From Candidatus Aminicenantes bacterium (lineage in GTDB: Bacteria; Acidobacteriota; Aminicenantia; Aminicenantales; JAFGBC01), in assembly GCA_022867325.1 (NCBI GenBank), contig JALHUR010000013.1:1-38058 (forward strand): a DNA stretch of 38,058 nt. The letters are read 5' to 3'. Below are positions 8,302 through 32,871 of this stretch, piece after piece. Under the pieces are notes generated by a model. The model was not told the DNA's origin. It saw nothing but the letters and a program-made list of their open reading frames with translations, and did no database searches. A program made the position numbers and the translations under genes. The stretch's first letter is position 1. Each line of letters begins with the position of its first letter.

Positions 8302-9729
8302 TCAGTACTTGAATATGTACGCGCGCCCGCAGTCGGAGGGGCTCGAACCGGGGTCCTCGTACGGGGCGCCGACTAGGACGTAACCCTTGGCTTTTCTAAC
8401 CGAGCTGGGCAGGCCCACGACGCCGAACCCGAAGTTGCCGCCGCCCTCTTTACTCGGCGAGACCAACGTCTTGAACAGCGTGCCCGTCGCTCCGGAGAAG
8501 ATGTAGGCCCGCCCGGCGTCCGACAGACCGCCGGCGTTCTCGTAGACGGCGCCGATCACGATGTCGCCGCGGCCATCGCCCGTGACGTCTTGGACACCCG
8601 AGGCGGAGAAGCCGAACCAGCCGTTGATCTCCTTGTTGGGCGACACGAACTGACGCAGCAGGGCGCCGGTGGCGCCCGAGTAGAGATAGGCCATTCCCGA
8701 TGATTCAGGGAGGCTGCTCGCGGGGTCATGCCCGGGAGCTGTGATGAGGATGTCGCCGCGGCCGTCTCCGTCGACATCGGGGATGCCGGCGACGACCTCG
8801 CCGAAACCGCCGAGTTGGACCTGCTTGGGAGAGGTGAAGGTGCGGAGACGGACGCCGGTAGCGCCGGAAAAGAGATAAGCGCGGCCCTCGGTGTAGGAGA
8901 CGTTGGGGATGGTGCTCTCGTTCATGGCGCCGACGATGACATCGCCCCGGCCGTCGCCGTTGACGTCCTGCACTCCCGAGACGTAGTTGCCGAAGTGGCC
9001 AAACTGTACTGGAGTCGGCGACGCGAGCTTCCGGAGCAGAACGCCGGTGGCGCCGGAGTAGATGTAGGCCCGGCCGCAGTCCGTCGGGCTGTTGCCGGGA
9101 TTTTCGTACAACGCGCCCACGACGACATCGCCCCGGCCATCGCCGTTGACGTCCGGCACGCCCGCCACCGTGAGCCCGAAGTTTCCAAAGAGCTGATCGG
9201 CGGGGGACTTGAGGGTGCACAGCAGCGCGCCGGTCGCGCCCGAGTAGATGTACGCCCGCCCGGCGCCGGCCGGGCTGTTGCCGGGCGATTCCGACGGCGC
9301 GCCGACCACGATGTCGCCCTTGCCGTCGCCGTTGACGTCGGGAACGCCCGACACCGAGCTGCTCTGGAAGACGAGGGCAGCCTGGAATGTCCCCCACGCG
9401 ACGGGCAGGAGCGACCGGAGGAATTTGCCGCCGGCTCCGGAGTAAATGTGCACCCGCCCGCAGCTGCCGTTGTCGTTGGGGAAGTTGGGTTCCAGCACGG
9501 CGATGTCCGCGCGCCCGTCGCCGTTCACGTCCGGGACCGCGCCGACACTCAGCCCGAAGTACCCATAGATCAAGGGCGTGGGCGATCCGAGCCCCTGCAC
9601 CTGTGATTTCAGATTTTCCTTGAGATTCTTCAAATCAAAAATCTTCCCGCTTTGCCTTGTTTCACCCGACATGGAAACAATCAGAATGACGAAGGTCAAT
9701 AACCCTAAGCCTGCAATCATTTTCTTCAT
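8302..9729 (-). CDS. Secreted FG-GAP / integrin-alpha-like beta-propeller protein
   Basis: Signal peptide and about 7 repeats of FG..V.GVPDVNGDGRGD.VVGA..E...GRAYIYSGATG with Ca-binding DxNGDG loops. Confidence 0.9.
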   Translation of the reverse strand: MKKMIAGLGLLTFVILIVSMSGETRQSGKIFDLKNLKENLKSQVQGLGSPTPLIYGYFGLSVGAVPDVNGDGRADIAVLEPNFPNDNGSCGRVHIYSGAGGKFLRSLLPVAWGTFQAALVFQSSSVSGVPDVNGDGKGDIVVGAPSESPGNSPAGAGRAYIYSGATGALLCTLKSPADQLFGNFGLTVAGVPDVNGDGRGDVVVGALYENPGNSPTDCGRAYIYSGATGVLLRKLASPTPVQFGHFGNYVSGVQDVNGDGRGDVIVGAMNESTIPNVSYTEGRAYLFSGATGVRLRTFTSPKQVQLGGFGEVVAGIPDVDGDGRGDILITAPGHDPASSLPESSGMAYLYSGATGALLRQFVSPNKEINGWFGFSASGVQDVTGDGRGDIVIGAVYENAGGLSDAGRAYIFSGATGTLFKTLVSPSKEGGGNFGFGVVGLPSSVRKAKGYVLVGAPYEDPGSSPSDCGRAYIFKY

Positions 9730-10745: not shown

Positions 10746-13346
10746 TCAGATCTGCGGATAGAGGAGTGCGTTGAGCAGGAACTTGTAGGTCCCGTGCGAC
10801 TGAGCCCGGCTCTGGGAGACGATCCCGATCAGGATGATGCGGCCCTTTTTGTATTGGAAGTCGACGACAGCCGCCTTGCGGGCGATGACGTCCTCTCCCA
10901 GCAGCCAGCCGCTCATCAGCACGCCCTCCTCCGGATAGCCGGCCACGACCTTGCGGTCCCACTCGTTGGGGGGGACCCGGGTCTCGTAGCCCGGGCTGTC
11001 CGAGAATACGGCCGGCGTCGTCTTGGGGAGCCCGTAGCCGATCGGCGTCGTGTTGTCGACTTCGAGCTTGAGGATCGACATCGGACAGAAGAACTTGGAG
11101 GATTCGACCTTGTCCAACCCGTCGCGGGCCGGGACCTGGAGCTCTTTGATGGCGAACTGGCCGGCCCCGTTGAGGGCCACCAGGATGCCGCCCTCTTCGA
11201 CGAAGGCTTTGAGGGCATCGACGCCGGCCTGCTCGATCCCGCCCTCGTACTCGGGGGGCATCGGGGTGATCCAGCGGGCGAACGGAGAGTTGGGGTCGGG
11301 TTTTCCGCTCTTGATGATGTCCGCGTTCTCATCGGGGAAAACGATGACGTCGTAGTTCGCCTTGAGGTCGAGCTTCTTTCCTTTCTCGACCTTGAAGTCC
11401 TTGTTGTGGATGGTTGTAAAGGGAATGCCCAGGTCATCGAAGACGAAGCGCGTCCAACCCTCGTCCATGTTGGACTTCCAGGACTGGTACAGGCCGACCC
11501 GGTTGAACTTGAGCGGGGCCTTGTCGATATCGGCCGTATCGTCGAGGTCGAGGACGGCCATGATGTATTTCGAGGCCAATCCGGGCAGGGCCTTTTTGAC
11601 CTCGGGCGTGTTCTTGACGATAAAGCTCCCGGCCGGGATGTCGATTCCTTTGCGGGTGACGACCGCCTTGGTCCGGTAAACCTCGGCTTTATCTTTGAGC
11701 AGGGCGAAAACCATCGGGTAGGCGGCGTTCGGCCGGCAGTCGAGGGCGAACCAGGCCGCGGCGCCCAGTTCGGGGGGCGGCTGGGGATATTCGACCTTGG
11801 CGATTTTCTCCAACTTGGCCTTGAAGGCGCCCTCGATCCGGTCGCAGGCGACGCCCATCTGGAGCGGCAGCGTCCAGCCCGCGTTGTCGTAGGGCGGAAC
11901 GGGCGGGCCGCCGGGATACTCCCGGAGGTCAGGGTATTTCTGCTTGTCGAGGAGGGCCCAGGCGTAAGGCTTGAAGGGTTGGGCCATCCTGACCACATAG
12001 GAGCCGGCCGGGTAGAGCTTGCCGTCGGCGAGGAAATCGGCCGCGGCCCGCTCGACCTCGACGCCGCCGAACATGAGGACGTCGATCATCTTGAGCATGG
12101 TCAGGTAATCGTGCTGGCGCGAGGGGATGACGAAGGCGTAGGGCTGGTTCTTGTCCTGGGTCTCGATGCTGGTCTTGGACATGAGGTAGGAATTGAACAG
12201 GAAGTCCTCTTTGCGGAGAAAGGCCGTGTTGACCAGGCTCATCGACAGGATGAGCTCGTACTCGACCAGGTCGCGGAGCCGCCACCAGCCGCCCGGCCAG
12301 GGGTCGGGGAACTCCATCCGCTTTTCGGCGTAGGATTTCTGCACCTCGCCCGGCTCGATGTTGATGGGTGTCGCGCCGCGGACCGAGGCCATCTCGCTCA
12401 GGAGCCCGACCGTGTTATGGAGCCAGCTCGTGTCGTCGCAAGCGCCGATCCACCAGCCCGTGAAGCTCCGGCCGTGGACGACCCCGCTCTTGCCGTTGGC
12501 CTGTAGGTCGTAGGCCATGGCGGCGCCGCACAGGTTGACGCCCCGCCAGAGAAGGGGCTGGACGTTGGGGATGGGCGGGTCCATGAAGGGCGGGATGAAC
12601 AGGCGCGCGCCGTTCGAGCCCATCTGGTGCTCGTCGATGTGGATCTGGGGGAACCAGTCGTGGTAGAGGACCTTGGTCACGGCCCGCGTCTCGGGGAGGT
12701 TGAACATGAACCAGTCGCGGTTGTTGTCGTGGCCGGCGTAGACATGGTAAAGCCAGGGCATGTTGCCGCCCTCGAACTTGGTCCCCAGGTACTTCCGGTA
12801 CCATTCGACGACCATCTGGTTGCCGTCCGGATTGTGGGTCGGGACGAGGAGGACGATGACGTCTTTGAGGACGGCGGCGGCGTCGAAGGGCGTTTTACCG
12901 ACGACGAGGTCGTAGGCGAACTCCATCGACATCTGGGAGGCCGCGACCTCGGAGGCGTGGAGGCTGCAGGTGATGAGGACGATGACCTTGCCCTCGCCGG
13001 CCAACTTGCGGGCGTCGTCGGCCGAGAGGCCGCGCGAGTCTTTAAGCTTGCGGGCGATTTCGCGATAGGCGTCGAGCTTGGCCATATTCTGTTCGGCCGT
13101 GATCACGGCCATGATGATAGGCCTTTTCTGGACGGATTCGCCGATCGTGAAAAGCGTGAGCTTGGGCGACTCCTGGTCCAGCTTCTCGAAGTAGGCTTTG
13201 ATCTGGTTGTAGTCGGCGAGCTTGCGGTCGGCGCCGACCTGGTGGCCCAAGAACTGGTCGGGAGGAGTCTGGGCGGATGCCGCGAAGGGCACGAGAAGCG
13301 ATAAAACAAGGATGAAGGCTTTCAGGGATGGGGAAGAAATTCTCAT
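10746..13346 (-). CDS. M14 family zinc carboxypeptidase with C-terminal glutamine-amidotransferase-like domain
   Basis: Signal peptide, HASE (HxxE), NPDG, HDNNRDW, DEHQMG, MDEGWTRFVFD. GAGGAGG RBS. Confidence 0.9.
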   Translation of the reverse strand: MRISSPSLKAFILVLSLLVPFAASAQTPPDQFLGHQVGADRKLADYNQIKAYFEKLDQESPKLTLFTIGESVQKRPIIMAVITAEQNMAKLDAYREIARKLKDSRGLSADDARKLAGEGKVIVLITCSLHASEVAASQMSMEFAYDLVVGKTPFDAAAVLKDVIVLLVPTHNPDGNQMVVEWYRKYLGTKFEGGNMPWLYHVYAGHDNNRDWFMFNLPETRAVTKVLYHDWFPQIHIDEHQMGSNGARLFIPPFMDPPIPNVQPLLWRGVNLCGAAMAYDLQANGKSGVVHGRSFTGWWIGACDDTSWLHNTVGLLSEMASVRGATPINIEPGEVQKSYAEKRMEFPDPWPGGWWRLRDLVEYELILSMSLVNTAFLRKEDFLFNSYLMSKTSIETQDKNQPYAFVIPSRQHDYLTMLKMIDVLMFGGVEVERAAADFLADGKLYPAGSYVVRMAQPFKPYAWALLDKQKYPDLREYPGGPPVPPYDNAGWTLPLQMGVACDRIEGAFKAKLEKIAKVEYPQPPPELGAAAWFALDCRPNAAYPMVFALLKDKAEVYRTKAVVTRKGIDIPAGSFIVKNTPEVKKALPGLASKYIMAVLDLDDTADIDKAPLKFNRVGLYQSWKSNMDEGWTRFVFDDLGIPFTTIHNKDFKVEKGKKLDLKANYDVIVFPDENADIIKSGKPDPNSPFARWITPMPPEYEGGIEQAGVDALKAFVEEGGILVALNGAGQFAIKELQVPARDGLDKVESSKFFCPMSILKLEVDNTTPIGYGLPKTTPAVFSDSPGYETRVPPNEWDRKVVAGYPEEGVLMSGWLLGEDVIARKAAVVDFQYKKGRIILIGIVSQSRAQSHGTYKFLLNALLYPQI

Positions 13347-13393
13347 GAAGACCTCCTCGTGATCGAAAAGTCGGGGTTCATGCGCAAGACCTC

Positions 13394-13422
13394 TTTCTAC
13401 ACCCGGGAAGGCGCCCTGTCAA
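13394..13422 (-). promoter_or_regulatory. Sigma70-type promoter for the M14 peptidase
   Basis: Minus-strand TTGACA-17 nt-TAGAAA. Confidence 0.5.
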
Positions 13423-13434
13423 GGCCGGAAAGTC

Positions 13435-13477
13435 GGGGTCAAACCTGCACTTTGTGACAAAGTGCAGGTTTGACCCC
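13435..13477. repeat. REP-like perfect palindrome (copy A)
   Basis: GGGGTCAAACCTGCACTTTGT-G-ACAAAGTGCAGGTTTGACCCC, 21-bp perfect arms. Confidence 0.9.
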
Positions 13478-13624
13478 TTTGAGGTTGACTTTGATCATCG
13501 GCTGGAGTTATGGTTTTATTAGTGGAGGGCAATACAAATTCCGGGTTCAAGGGAAGTCCAACATGGCTTTCCCCGGGGTTTAACATGATCCGGAGGGCCG
13601 GAGCGCTTTTTTAAGGAGGGAACC

Positions 13625-13879
13625 ATGGACACTTGCATCGGTCAGGTAACCCACTTTTTTAATCACCTCGGCGTCGCCGTCTTGCAGCTCAGCGGCGAGC
13701 TGAAAGTCGGCGAGACCATTAAGATCGTAGGGCATTCCAAGGAATTCACACAGCCGGTCTCTTCCCTCGAGGTTGAACACCGGAAGGTCGAGTCGGCCGG
13801 GCCGGGGATGGAAGTGGCCATGAAAGTGGCCGAGCCCGTTCATAAAGGCGACAAGGTGTTCAAAGTCTCTCCGCAATAA
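13625..13879 (+). CDS. Small translation-elongation-factor-like beta-barrel protein (EF-Tu domain II / U32 C-terminal-like)
   Basis: IGQVTHFF..LGVAV..L...LKVGETIKI.G....F.Q.V.SLE.....V..A..G..VA.KV..PV..GDKVFKV pattern. Strong AAGGAGG RBS. Confidence 0.85.
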   Translation: MDTCIGQVTHFFNHLGVAVLQLSGELKVGETIKIVGHSKEFTQPVSSLEVEHRKVESAGPGMEVAMKVAEPVHKGDKVFKVSPQ

Positions 13880-13890
13880 AGATCGGTAAA

Positions 13891-14081
13891 GATCGGGGTC
13901 AAACCTACACTTTTGCCTTTAGTGCAAATTGACCCGTTCGCCGACGCTAAGCCCCGCCTTTAAAGGCGGGGACGAGAAGCGAGGCTCAGGGTTAACCCTG
14001 AGCAAGCCCCGGCATTCATGCCGGGGAGTCGATGGGTTGACTTTTTGCACTTTGTGACAAAGTGTAGGTTTGACCCCGATC
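13891..14081. repeat. REP-like palindrome (copy B) interrupted by a 108-nt element
   Basis: 23-bp perfect outer arms GATCGGGGTCAAACCTACACTTT (13891-13913) and AAAGTGTAGGTTTGACCCCGATC (14059-14081). Same family as copy A. Confidence 0.88.
13934..14041 (+). mobile_element. 108-nt non-autonomous multi-hairpin element (IS200/IS605-end-like, PATE/MITE), copy 1
   Basis: Follows TTGAC and ends in TTGAC. Hairpins: CCCCGCC-TTTAAA-GGCGGGG, GCTCAGGGTTAACCCTGAGC, CCCCGGC-ATTCAT-GCCGGGG. 102/108 identical to copy 2 in an unrelated context. Confidence 0.85.
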
Positions 14082-14232
14082 GCTAGTGGGCGGCGATGCC
14101 GAGGGCGGCGATCGAGTTGCTGTCATGGACGCCGGCCGCGGGACTCCTCCCGTCTCCTCCTCCCGCATTTTGCCGCCGGTCGAATGAATTTCTCTTTTTT
14201 CAGGGCTTCTGCGGCACAGGGCTCCCGGGAAT

Positions 14233-14261
14233 TTGACAGGTATCGGCTATTCGCGTACCCT
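14233..14261 (+). promoter_or_regulatory. Possible sigma70-type promoter
   Basis: TTGACA-17 nt-TACCCT upstream of 14291. Confidence 0.45.
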
Positions 14262-14290
14262 GTTTAAGGCGTTTTGAAAGGACGGAGATC

Positions 14291-15544
14291 ATGGACCGAC
14301 ATCGTCTCCCCAAGCCCGCGCTGGCCCTGATTGCGGCCGGATTCCTCTGCGCCGGGCTCGCCGGAGGGTTGGCCGGCCAGGAGCCGACGCAAGCCCAGGA
14401 TCGGGTGGGGCGGCTTTTCGCCGCGGCCGACGCGGCCTTCGATCAGGGCGATTTCGCGACCGCCCTCGAAAGCTACTTTGAAATCACGACCCTGGCCCTC
14501 GACCGCGCGGAGCTCGCCCGGGCCTCGGTCGGCCTGGCCATCAGCTATTTTTCGTTGAACGACCGCGTCGGCGCCTCCAAATGGCTCCGCCAGGCGCTTG
14601 TCTACGACCCCAAGAAAGAGCTTATCGACCGGATCTATCCCGAATCCTTCGTCCTTCTCTTCATGGAAATCCGCAAGGAAGGGACGGCCGCGGCCGAACC
14701 CGCCCCCCAGGAACCTCAGCCGGCGGCCCCGCCGGTCCAGGCCCCGGTCCGAGAGCCTCCCAAGCAGGAACCTCAGCCTCCCCCGCAAGAGCAACCGGCG
14801 GGCGGTTTCCGGCTGCTGGGCGAGACCGACTGGAAGGACAAATGGGAGATCGAAACCCATCTCTCCTCCTGGAACGTCAACCTGATCAAGGGTATCTTCG
14901 AATCCTTCGTCACCGACAACATGGCCGAGGAGATCCGGGACCAGGTCCTCGCTAAGCTCCGGAAATTCTACTCGCCTCTGTATCAAAGGGGGTATGAAGA
15001 AAACATCACCTTCGATTCGGACGGCTCAAACTACGGGTTCGGGGCCAGATACTATCCGAGAGGACGGGAAAGCGGTTTCAGCTTCGCCCTGTCCTTCGAG
15101 AAAACCCATATCAAGCTCATCATGGCCGGCCCGGTCAAGCAGACCTACGCTCCCGGCGGCTCCTCCCAGGTCAATTCGAACAGTACCATCGAGACGAGCC
15201 CGTTCTCGACGAACCTGAGCTTCCGCTGGGAGTTCATTCCCGCTTGGCGGGTGACGCCCTACTTTACCTGGGGCCTGGGGCTGGCCGCCCTGGACGGCGA
15301 GGTCAGCTACACCTGGCAGGGGACGGTCCAGTACTTGGGGCGGGAGGAGAGCATCGGGGACAGCATCGTCAAGACCTTTGCCGAAACCGAGGAAGAAAAC
15401 GACTTTAACATTCCCAACATCTTTGTCATCCTCCACTTTGGGTTCGGCGTCAAGGGCGAAATCGTCCCCGGGCTGTCCGGGATCGCCGAAGCGAGTTTCT
15501 GGGACGGGATCCTGTTACGGGCCGGAGTCGCCTATCGTTTTTAA
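14291..15544 (+). CDS. Exported protein: TPR-like domain, Pro/Gln/Glu linker, outer-membrane beta-barrel
   Basis: Signal peptide, helical TPR-like segment, EPAPQEPQP linker, amphipathic strands and a C-terminal AGVAYRF beta-signal. Confidence 0.75.
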   Translation: MDRHRLPKPALALIAAGFLCAGLAGGLAGQEPTQAQDRVGRLFAAADAAFDQGDFATALESYFEITTLALDRAELARASVGLAISYFSLNDRVGASKWLRQALVYDPKKELIDRIYPESFVLLFMEIRKEGTAAAEPAPQEPQPAAPPVQAPVREPPKQEPQPPPQEQPAGGFRLLGETDWKDKWEIETHLSSWNVNLIKGIFESFVTDNMAEEIRDQVLAKLRKFYSPLYQRGYEENITFDSDGSNYGFGARYYPRGRESGFSFALSFEKTHIKLIMAGPVKQTYAPGGSSQVNSNSTIETSPFSTNLSFRWEFIPAWRVTPYFTWGLGLAALDGEVSYTWQGTVQYLGREESIGDSIVKTFAETEEENDFNIPNIFVILHFGFGVKGEIVPGLSGIAEASFWDGILLRAGVAYRF

Positions 15545-25940: not shown

Positions 25941-26480
25941 TCATTTCTCGATGCCTATCCGGGCGCGGACGCCTTTGTCCGAGTAGTGCTTGCGTTCCTT
26001 CATCTCGGTCACCAGGTCGGCCCGGCGCAGGATGGAGGGCCGGGCTGATCGGCCGGTCAGGACGACCTCGACATCGGCGGGTCTCCGGTCGAGGAAAGCG
26101 AGGACGTCCTTTTCCGGGATGAGGTCCAAGTCGACCGCGACGTTGACCTCGTCGAGGACGACGATCCGGTAGCGGCCGGAGAGCATGGCCTTGAGGCAGC
26201 GCGCCAGGCCGCGCCCGGCCCTGTCGATATCCTCGCGGTCGGGGTCTCCGTCAAGCCGGACGAATCCCCGGCGCCCGAACCGCTCGATCGCGATAAGAGG
26301 CGATAGACGACGGGCCGCCTTGAGCTCGCCCGTCGGCCGGCCCTTCAGGAACTGGCCGATATAGGTCGCGAAGCCGTGGCCGGCGGCGCGGAGGGCGAGG
26401 CCGAGCGCGGCCGTCGTCTTGCCCTTGCCGTCGCCGGTGTAGACCTGGACGCGGCCTTGGAACGACGAAGGAGCGGACAT
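25941..26480 (-). CDS. cobO: Cob(I)yrinic acid a,c-diamide adenosyltransferase (CobA/CobO/BtuR)
   Basis: VQVYTGDGKGKTTAALGLALRAAGHG, QFLKG, VVLDE, EVVLTGR, ADLVTEM. Confidence 0.92.
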   Translation of the reverse strand: MSAPSSFQGRVQVYTGDGKGKTTAALGLALRAAGHGFATYIGQFLKGRPTGELKAARRLSPLIAIERFGRRGFVRLDGDPDREDIDRAGRGLARCLKAMLSGRYRIVVLDEVNVAVDLDLIPEKDVLAFLDRRPADVEVVLTGRSARPSILRRADLVTEMKERKHYSDKGVRARIGIEK

Positions 26481-27987: not shown

Positions 27988-28203
27988 ACCGACATGGTTA
28001 GGAGGGGAGATTTAGTACGCGGAGCGAAAATCCGCCGCCCCGCGGAAAAAGCAAATTCTTAAACATCCCCATGACGTGAACTCATTTATTACCGGGAGCG
28101 ATAAATTGATTGCATGTTAGATTCTCAACAACCCAGAGTGGATCGGCATAATGCAGCAATCTATTTGATGCTTCCCTTAATAAGTCACTGCCGGGAGGTT
28201 TTC

Positions 28204-29511
28204 ATGAAAAAGATTTTTGTGATTTGTTGGTGTGTCATCAGTCTGTCAGCCATAGCAAGCGCTCAAACTCTGGTCACCAGGAGCGTTGTGAGCGATCAGA
28301 AGGGGAAAGACTATGCGCCAAATATCGTGCCGACGAGCGACGGCCAGTGGGCCGTCTTTTGGGCCCGGGACAAAGGTAGTGAAAACGTGATGATCCGAGG
28401 CCGAGGACTGCAGTCAGATGGGACGATCCTTACCGGCATTAGAAACCTGATCGGAGCGACACTCTATCGCCAGACGACTTTTGGAGGAGCGTCTCTCGGC
28501 AAGGGGCAGATCGTGGTGGGAGGGACACGTGAATCCGATCGCCAAATCGTGACGCGCGTCTATGACTCGAAATTGATAGCCAAGGCCAATCTTGTCGCTA
28601 CTGGGCAGACAGGGTTTAACACGACGTTTGCGCCATGCGCTTCGGGTGTGCTTTTGGCCTGGACAGACGCCATCGGCGCCCACATTGCTCCGCTCGACCC
28701 GTTCGCCGACGCTAAGCCCCGCCTTTCAAGGCGGGGACGAGAAGCGACACTTTTGTACTCAGCCCCTTGAGAGGAGATGGGGCTGAGTGGGCTCAGGGTT
28801 AACCCCGAACAAGCCCCGGCATTCATGCTGGGGGGTCGAGGGGTTGACTCGACGGGCCGATTCACCTCTTCCCCCCTTGAGCTGCCGACAGCCTCAAAGG
28901 CGCATTTTCTTCAACCAACCCGCATCGCCGCGACTCCCAATGGATACCTGGTCGTGGGCCTTGAGACGTACGCTGACTACAGTTTGAGACGTACGAGCGG
29001 CAATCTTGTAACCACCGATTTATCGAAGGCTAGCAAGGCCATCATCTACGAATCATCATTCAGCGAGCACGCCTTTGCAGCCGATGCCGCATGGGAGGGG
29101 AAGACCGGTTACACGCTGTTCGGACGGCGCGTCAACGACTCAAAAACCAGCGGTTATTTTCGAAAAATTAACGCCGCCGGAAAGCCGGCCGCGGCAGCGA
29201 AAAAGTTTCCGCCCAACAAAGCTCCTAACACCTGTAACTACCGAATCATCCCCCTCACGGGCACCGGCTGGTTTGCCACAACATGGTATGACTACAGCCA
29301 GGAGCTCATGTATCTGCAAATACTGTCCTCAAAGGGAACCTTCATGGGCAGCCCCGTCCCCATTTCGGAAAATGCCTATCGCATCCTGGACGACGTCGTC
29401 GACATGGCGTGGGACGCGGCATCGCAGAGGATCCTTGTCGCATACGCCGAGTACGCGGCAGCGCCGTCAACACCTGAGGACATTTGGGTCGCGATCTTCA
29501 GCCTGGAATAA
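28204..29511 (+). pseudogene. Secreted beta-rich hypothetical protein interrupted in frame by a 150-nt element
   Basis: ORFs 28114-28770 and 28777-29511 share one frame. Removing 28699-28848 gives ...HIAPLD|STGRF..., a continuous 385-aa ORF with a signal peptide (MKKIFVICWCVISLSAIASA). GGAGG RBS. Confidence 0.8.
28699..28848 (+). mobile_element. Multi-hairpin element copy 2 (108 nt plus a 42-nt extra hairpin)
   Basis: Same sequence as 13934-14041 with 6 substitutions. Preceded by TCGAC, ends in TTGAC. The extra segment 28748-28789 contains the stem ACTCAGCCCC/GGGGCTGAGT. Confidence 0.88.
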
Positions 29512-32628: not shown

Positions 32629-32718
32629 GGAGGGATGGCCGAGTGGTTTAAGGCGGCGGTCTTGAAAACCGCTTTCCGGTCTTCCGGAACGGGGGTTCGA
32701 ATCCCTCTCCCTCCGCCA
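32629..32718 (+). tRNA. tRNA-Ser(TGA)
   Basis: GGAGGGA acceptor stem, GCGGT-CT-TGA-AA-ACCGC anticodon arm, long variable arm, GGTTCGAATCC, encoded GCCA end. Confidence 0.97.

Positions 32719-32777: not shown

Positions 32778-32871
<94 letters not shown>

Follow-up and report, generated by a model that had tools for sequence, protein, structure and literature searches.

A probable gene-less IS200/IS605-type hairpin element in high copy in a Candidatus Aminicenantes genome

The element in the window and across the genome

The window studied here is a stretch of 38,058 nucleotides of Candidatus Aminicenantes DNA (assembly GCA_022867325.1, contig JALHUR010000013.1; the whole genome, G000 in our numbering, comprises 3.73 Mb in 498 contigs, with 61% G+C, and is 92% complete), and it carries two copies of a short, hairpin-rich repeat that we discuss as a probable non-autonomous transposable element of the IS200/IS605 type. 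Copy 1 lies at 13929-14041, where a first-pass annotation of this DNA had placed it, and measures 113 nt when both flanking pentamers are counted, that is TTGAC, 103 nt of hairpin-rich DNA, and TTGAC again. The first pentamer (13929-13933) is the host's target, or transposon-adjacent motif (TAM), and the 108 nt actually inserted (13934-14041) run from CCGTTCGCC... to ...GGGGTTGAC, their last five bases (14037-14041) being the TTGAC encoded by the element, or transposon-encoded motif (TEM). The predicted fold places a left subterminal GC hairpin at 13951-13973, 17 nt past the target pentamer, a central 20-nt palindrome hairpin at 13984-14003, and a right subterminal GC hairpin at 14007-14026, on the same strand and with the same stem type as the left one. 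All these features, like those of copy 2, are given on the + strand.

Copy 1 sits downstream of an 84-aa gene, and its target pentamer occupies the loop of a host hairpin with 7-bp arms, inside a long variant of a REP (repetitive extragenic palindrome), whose left half (13895-13928) and right half (14042-14077, family D9) it interrupts. Copy 2 is inserted in frame in a gene whose product is a secreted protein, without a Pfam match and with no known function. Its left flank is TCGAC (28694-28698) and its right end TTGAC, as had been correctly read from the sequence, and its 150 nt (28699-28848) make 155 nt with both pentamers (28694-28848), not 113. What accounts for the additional length is an optional 42-nt hairpin module (28748-28789), unmentioned by the first-pass annotation and missing from copy 1; the identity of 102/108 given for the two copies is true only after this insert is removed, as the two halves of copy 2 match copy 1 at 51/52 and 55/60 positions with offsets 42 nt apart. 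The same module holds the in-frame TGA that ends the upstream open reading frame, and the host gene is thereby split into two same-frame open reading frames (28114-28770 and 28777-29511). In two metagenome contigs related to the window (L068 and L069), a TGA replaces the window's TGG (Trp) about 40 nt upstream of the copy 2 site (window ~28655), and because both contigs have it, the split gene may be dispensable or decaying in several strains.

Both copies have the architecture that had been described, namely two GC hairpins preceded by AAG, a central palindrome (perfect in copy 1 and degenerate in copy 2) and pairing termini. Folded as single-stranded DNA, each copy is predicted to form a closed multi-hairpin structure (z = -5.26 for copy 1 and -4.88 for copy 2, with 0/200 shuffles as good), in which the two GC hairpins lie on one strand and share stem type and orientation. 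The pair that closes the loop of the right hairpin covaries, being A:T in 110 and C:G in 17 of the 168 right ends scored.

To speak of two copies proved a large understatement, as the genome contains about 200. A blastn search of G000 gave 609 matches, which merged into 244 loci, and a fuzzy search for the ends gave 197 left ends and 175 right ends, forming 129 left-right pairs that span 58-292 nt (with modes at 113, 143-145, 153-155, 185 and 198). No pair in this genome is long enough for a gene. All 91 full copies taken with 30-nt flanks start with CCGTTCGCC and end with GGGGTTGAC, and the DNA outside these boundaries is unrelated from copy to copy.

Between its constant ends, the body of the element is a mosaic of optional hairpin modules, some of them placed in the loop of the first hairpin. 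Matches to the 42-nt module fall inside the 129 paired copies in 34 cases and outside in 19, and those to another module, hairpin B, in 18 and 28 cases, respectively. Hairpins of the form CACTCA...TGAGTG (some GAAA-looped) and other modules were seen within the element, in longer composite arrays and sometimes alone (for example at C57:7198-7226, C416:2380-2600 and C15:15251-15314 of G000), and the small hairpin modules may be separate tiny mobile hairpins. The suggestion that a length divisible by three favours tolerance inside genes is less well supported: only 52 of the 91 full copies have such an inserted length, and copy 2, although in frame, brings a stop codon. We also rejected selection for such lengths, since two subfamilies (108 and 150 nt) dominate the count.

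Empty sites, target pentamer and replication strand

Empty-site alleles, which the first-pass annotation had suggested looking for, were found for both copies. For copy 2, the contigs L068 and L069 (94-95% identical to the window around this copy) read CTCCGC-TCGAC-TCGAC-GGGCCG, and the window has 150 nt between both TCGACs. Because the empty site already holds both TCGACs, the TCGAC at the left belongs to the host, and it is the TTGAC at the right that arrived with the element. The empty site of copy 1 is seen in three other metagenomes (X2, X5 and X6), each with one contig in which 13928 is joined directly to 14037 and 108 nt are skipped. The sides of these joints measure 38, 45 and 34 letters, and 5, 3 and 5 letters are ambiguous, respectively; the joints, drawn from metagenome contigs matched at 90% likeness and with REP-like flanks, show the host hairpin that removal of copy 1 had been predicted to restore. 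The sole bridging paralogue in G000 (C475, 87% identical) is without TTGAC at its centre. Run X1, which holds the largest share of the window stretch, contains no empty-site joint for copy 1. In the same contig survey no copy 2 joint was present among the 15 joints listed (153 more exist), and one X6 contig begins matching at 28846; neither observation is used as evidence for or against copy 2. Other short-sided joints (sides 21-24) around 13455-14058 were rejected as REP cross-matches. The empty sites in these contigs are compatible with precise excision as well as with a never-inserted state.

A second potential source of empty sites was the 4.31-Mb genome G001, which is complete and comes from the same genus (serS 89% identical). 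It is 79-87% identical to the window around copy 1 in the stretches that align, and its corresponding site has a different REP and no element; these flanks are too diverged for an exact comparison and the genome was set aside for this purpose.

The pentamers at the two ends behave differently. In G000, 130 of 197 left ends have TTGAC, the variation of the left pentamer being concentrated at its positions 1 and 3, and the right pentamer is TTGAC in 155 of 175 (Fisher p = 1.9e-7). Left variants that change the G of GAC (TTTAC in 10 cases, TTAAC in 7, TTCAC in 6) have no matching change at the right, and among 32 full copies whose left pentamer is variant, 28 keep TTGAC at the right. Expressed as departure per site, the left pentamer stands at 9.5%, the adjoining ends of the element at 4.1% and the right pentamer at 2.0%, and among the 63 least-diverged copies (at most one change in 33 terminal bases) the left pentamer is variant in 18 and the right in 6. 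This asymmetry is not explained by promoter selection, because the right pentamer also varies in just 18 of the 127 right ends that lack a -10 box. Upstream of the left pentamer, composition is flat over 12 bases. At the other side, the base that follows the terminal TTGAC is T or A at 76% of 170 right flanks, and at 4% it is G. Taken together, the evidence says that the pentamer is not duplicated on insertion; rather, the motif at the left is the host's and the one at the right is part of the element, as had been supposed from the two copies of the window.

The orientation of the element follows replication. Among the 136 left-end matches in G001, 80 are exact, and between 0.5 and 2.577 Mb 33/40 of them are on the '+' strand, elsewhere 36/40 on the '-' strand; with dnaA at 0.504 Mb, 69/80 have their hairpin strand (TTGAC-CCGTTC...) on the lagging-strand template. 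When the terminus was fixed half a genome from the origin, a scan placed the origin at 0.46 Mb and again gave 69. Of the genes, only 112/196 run in the direction of replication (Fisher p = 1.7e-6 against the element), a control based on our own crude gene caller and on 15 of the 20 fetched G001 regions, five beside the switch points having been dropped. The GC skew of the sampled regions is weak and of the expected sign, and 11/11 IS200 tnpA copies of G001 obey the strand rule of the element. A preference for the lagging-strand template has been reported for IS608, ISDra2 and other family members in the available parts of two papers (PMC5027513, PMC8612924), and the bias seen here is the known signature of single-strand transposition by the IS200/IS605 family.

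Promoters, IS200 relatives and spread across the class

The right end of the element often lies where a -35 box would be. Of 152 copies, 25 have a TAnnnT hexamer that begins 19 bases past the terminal TTGAC and 16 have one at 20 bases, as compared with 0-4 copies at each of 38 other offsets, and this spacing is the canonical TTGACn-N17/18-TAnnnT promoter geometry. By our own crude gene calls, 136/174 right ends are intergenic, and 41 of these 136 (~30%) have a -10 box at the right distance. Compared with all other TTGACs of the genome, the enrichment for a -10 box is strong in number (43/152 vs 478/8244); compared with other intergenic TTGACs, of which 398/1798 (22%) have one, it shrinks to an odds ratio of 1.5 (p = 0.034). 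On this ground we rejected active "promoter homing", which would mostly be a by-product because 22% of ordinary intergenic TTGACs also carry a -10. Insertions do hit promoters, as the first-pass annotation had anticipated, at a rate hardly above that of any intergenic TTGAC. Where a neighbouring gene was called, the right end faces a gene start in 57/80 cases and the left end in 38/78. In G001, a 68-nt mini copy lies at the -35 of the small upstream gene, and the window has there a plain TTGAC with a -10-like hexamer.

As we read it, the element has TTGAC as its target, persists in the spaces between genes and does no harm in promoters. On landing in a promoter, it would push the old -35 upstream and bring its own TTGAC to the same base. 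The spacing between -35 and -10 would be kept because the left target and the right end are one word, TTGAC, which is the -35 core, and the insertion would be harmless because the -35 is restored at the same base. Many intergenic TTGACs are -35 boxes and would therefore be tolerated landing sites. We infer that the terminal TTGAC serves as the -35 in these places.

As a potential source of transposase, G000 encodes a short IS200 TnpA (C497, 147 aa, Pfam Y1_Tnp E = 7.8e-40) and three longer Y1 proteins that resemble the REP-associated tyrosine transposases (RAYT); the genome, 92% complete, gave no match to TnpB (Pfam PF07282). The resident IS200 has hairpins of the stem type GCCCCG...CGGGG, as in the element, and the IS200 lineage in G000, G001 and G136 uses end words other than TTGAC. 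The class also has IS200 relatives with TTGAC at both junctions: the tnpA-bearing IS200 of G225 (C9) and G151 (C12) have TTGAC as left flank and as last five bases. The tnpA of G225 has an internal stop, and the distance from left pentamer to hairpin is 17 nt in this IS200 and in the element. Three more genomes (G134, G019 and G181) have IS200 with TTGAC at the right end and other left pentamers. Overall, a TTGAC-type IS200 right end occurs in 20/339 genomes of the class, and only 5 of the 31 carriers of the element have one as well. G000 itself has a solo IS200-type right-end hairpin ending in TTGAC (C147:6868-6887, - strand), with no adjoining tnpA, upstream of a gene start.

Several side observations concern these IS200 and the REP sequences. 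Single-hairpin miniatures (~45-50 nt) of TTGAC-ending IS200 were seen at L091 (G034), L095 (G138) and L097 (G159), and in the last of these the TTGAC is followed by a -10-like TATATC at 17-nt spacing. G001 has 11 near-identical IS200 with a 150-aa TnpA (L026, L031, L033 and L035-L042), each behind TGCAC and ending in CTTTAC, several of them inside REP palindromes. A 43-nt REP palindrome with perfect arms recurs through G000, including the window (13436-13478).

RAYT-like Y1 proteins were found in all 11 element-bearing genomes searched (G000, G001, G005, G013, G025, G040, G131, G136, G140, G184 and G225). The 297-aa RAYT-like gene at C140:1485-2376 of G000 has the 43-nt REP on both sides, in a REPtron-like arrangement, and likewise its counterpart in G001; at its 3' end, the C140 frame continues into a partial element copy. 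Beside the 12 RAYT-like loci searched by blastn-short with element and REP queries, no element was found other than this partial copy.

The element family is present in 8/41 relatives and, more widely, in 31/339 genomes and 12/95 genera of the class. In four genomes that belong to another family, its best copies reach 92-96% identity with copy 1, as compared with 74-77% for serS, and because of this gap the sequences suggest recent transfer between lineages, to which constraint on the element could contribute. Our literature search, with the supplementary TAM/TEM tables of PMC10055086 outside its scope, found no description of this element family. TTGAC has been proposed as a TnpB TAM in the part of PMC12415229 available to us.

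Interpretation and comparison with known systems

Based on these results, we read the feature at 13929-14041 as one copy of a high-copy, gene-less and non-autonomous transposable element of the IS200/IS605 type, that is a palindrome-associated transposable element (PATE), with a probability of about 0.8. The first-pass annotation had arrived at a minimal peel-and-paste element from the two copies of the window, and this proposal gains support from the empty site of copy 2, the asymmetry between the pentamers, the strand bias, the hairpins on one strand and the TTGAC-ended IS200 relatives. In the mechanism that we envisage, the strand that bears similar GC hairpins near both ends would be recognised, as single-stranded DNA at the replication fork, by a Y1 (HUH) TnpA supplied in trans. 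The enzyme would cut after the host pentamer at the left and after the element's own terminal TTGAC at the right, and the single-stranded circle so released would be pasted 3' of a new TTGAC-like pentamer (roughly NTNAC, mostly TTGAC), with no target duplication. Here we infer both the single-strand chemistry and the identity of the acting TnpA. According to the available parts of PMC10055086 and PMC5027513, a DNA guide within the element reads the target in those members of the family that have been studied, and because the guide lies in the element, a resident TnpA that accepts the hairpins could move an element with another target word.

Several results weigh against this reading. The resident IS200 of G000 has TTTAT as left flank and TTTAC as right end, with terminal sequences unlike those of the element, which is therefore not a simple deletion derivative of it, and no gene-bearing copy with the exact ends of the element was found in G000, where the longest of the 129 pairs is 292 nt. 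G131, which is assembled in 5 contigs, has 118 first-look candidates for the element and only longer, weakly matching Y1 proteins with no short TnpA; G005, G013, G025 and G040 are likewise carriers without a short TnpA. At the left end of four IS200 variants, the second guide base appears by eye to change with the target in a Watson-Crick manner (A:T, C:G, G:C), but the IS200 right end and the two left-end types of the element break this rule, again by eye, and from the four variants and the element no convincing guide-to-target pairing code could be derived in this way. The strand bias comes from one genome, G001, with the terminus placed where the strands switch, and only 13/20 left ends with one mismatch follow the rule among the matches listed (there are 36 further); the crude caller and the dropped regions of its gene control count here as well, as do the crude gene calls behind the intergenic and promoter counts. 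Regarding the junctions, the 3-nt GAC ambiguity at copy 2 stays, and a 3-bp GAC duplication is compatible with that site alone. Two copies have an identical variant on both sides, as a duplication would give: TCGAC at C366:8047 of G000 and TTCAC at locus L010 of G002. Finally, where the left pentamer is variant, the ends of the copy are more diverged (1.97 vs 1.02 changes, p = 0.035), so part of the left-pentamer variation is decay. On the side, the G002 locus (C337:166-278) may belong to a subfamily whose end word has changed, or else be a rare case that resembles a duplication.

Four other explanations were weighed. An unlikely one is that the element is a REP- or REPIN-like repeat (REPIN, REP doublet forming a hairpin) moved by a longer RAYT-type Y1 transposase, that is a host-associated family with a dedicated single-copy enzyme and similar chemistry. 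The presence of RAYT-like proteins in all 11 element-bearing genomes searched speaks for it, in G131 and the four other carriers as the only Y1 proteins found, and the strand bias and hairpins would fit any Y1 enzyme. Nevertheless, what flanks the C140 gene, and likewise its counterpart in G001, is the 43-nt REP and not the element, the other ten RAYT-like loci searched have no element beside them, and the two different ends, with TTGAC paired between left flank and right end, are like those of an insertion sequence rather than of a single palindrome with a conserved head. We consider very unlikely a cut-and-paste miniature inverted-repeat transposable element that duplicates its target (5-bp TTGAC or 3-bp GAC) and is moved by a DDE transposase. 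It would account for TTGAC on both sides of most copies, for the two copies with matching variants and for the GAC ambiguity at copy 2; it is contradicted by the empty site of copy 2, which already has both TCGACs, by the variant-left copies that keep TTGAC at the right and the unmatched changes in the G of GAC, and by ends that are not inverted repeats, and a replication-strand bias of 86% would be unexpected for DDE elements.

We give very little credence to a site-specific recombinase (IS110-type or integrase-like) with a crossover within a shared TTGAC core and no duplication. The same word at both junctions is what it predicts, and the hybrid of TCGAC at the left with an intact TTGAC at the right could stem from a crossover inside the core, but the lagging-strand-template bias is common to the IS200 copies, the paired same-strand hairpins resemble IS200 ends, and there is no recombinase-bearing copy among the left-right pairs of G000, although no search was aimed at IS110-type genes. 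Least credible of all is a functional structured RNA or promoter-upstream regulatory module, conserved for function and immobile. The element does fold far better than shuffles, one stem pair covaries and many copies lie just upstream of genes. However, it is polymorphic for presence at exact boundaries, copy 2 splits a gene, about 200 copies stand in unrelated contexts, and an Rfam 15 scan of 13300-14400 (E up to 10) found no family near threshold, the best match over the element being HgcC with 19.4 bits against a threshold of 50. In addition, because the element lies upstream of the -35, it is not transcribed from the promoter on which it sits.

Beyond the PATE reading itself, a wider picture is possible, though we hold it rather doubtful: promoters would be evolved safe harbours, and the internal modules would be single-strand elements landing in loops, so that together they form a self-nesting ecosystem of hairpin transposons that spreads between families. 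As target and right end are the -35 core and nothing is duplicated, each insertion would create a new -35 at the same base, and the promoter would keep working and gain an upstream block of GC hairpins that could insulate it from read-through. The CACTCA...TGAGTG and other modules would land in the loops of other hairpins, as copy 1 has landed in the loop of a REP.

If a PATE it is, we have here a selfish element that can multiply to hundreds of copies, in a genome that is compact, without much apparent cost, and whose end, matched to its target, would leave the commonest intergenic TTGAC sites, the -35 boxes of promoters, geometrically intact. For the annotation of uncultured sediment bacteria, such repeats matter in that they break assemblies (498 contigs here), split genes (as copy 2 does) and mimic structured RNAs. 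The family also offers a natural data set for single-strand transposition, in which each genome contributes about 200 copies, the strand bias is strong and public metagenomes contain polymorphic sites, and could be used to work out the rules of guide and target in a lineage with identical TAM and TEM.

Elsewhere in the window, 5-6 tandem units of 186-189 nt with 66-84% identity (families D1-D5) occupy 8454-9375, presumably the coding region of a repeat-domain protein, and a similar unit lies at 26421-26452. Two adjacent tRNA-Ser genes, with anticodons TGA and GCT, are found at 32629-32718 and 32778-32871.

PATEs were reportedly first named in Haloquadratum walsbyi (PMC3119063). PATE-like elements of the Geobacillus stearothermophilus ISGst have also been described (PMC10055086), and the comparisons with published systems made here hold for the available parts of the papers cited. 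Like PATEs, the element is gene-less, has subterminal hairpins on one strand, exists in many copies that would need a TnpA in trans, and inserts 3' of a short motif without duplication, with a similar motif at the right end. The key distinctions are that its left-flank and right-end motifs are the same word, which is the -35 core, that its body is a mosaic of optional hairpin modules spanning 58-292 nt, and that no parent insertion sequence with the same terminal sequences was found. Among studied members of the IS200/IS605 family, ISDra2 targets TTGAT and IS608 targets TTAC (PMC8612924, PMC5027513). With these two the element shares insertion 3' of the target without duplication and the bias for the lagging-strand template; its pentanucleotide target is one base away from that of ISDra2, and immediately 5' of its hairpins lies an A-rich stretch that ends in G, in the place where IS608 has its AAAG guide. 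Unlike both, it has neither tnpA nor tnpB, and no convincing guide-to-target pairing was derived for it. The REP sequences with their bacterial interspersed mosaic elements (BIMEs) and the REPINs (PMC3333891, PMC3116915) resemble it in being intergenic, high in copy, hairpin-forming, linked to Y1 enzymes and arranged in BIME-like mosaics, and differ from it in that the element has two distinct ends and a defined target word and was not found to flank the RAYT-like gene, as the separate 43-nt REP of the genome does. Within the class, the element resembles the TTGAC-ended IS200 lineage (G225:C9, G151:C12, G134, G019 and G181), which is undescribed as far as our literature searches show. That lineage encodes a TnpA of ~150 aa and differs from the element in the terminal sequences outside the stems, but it shares with it the TTGAC right end, the TTGAC left flank in 2/5 cases, the GCCCCG...CGGGG stem type and the 17 nt from left pentamer to hairpin.

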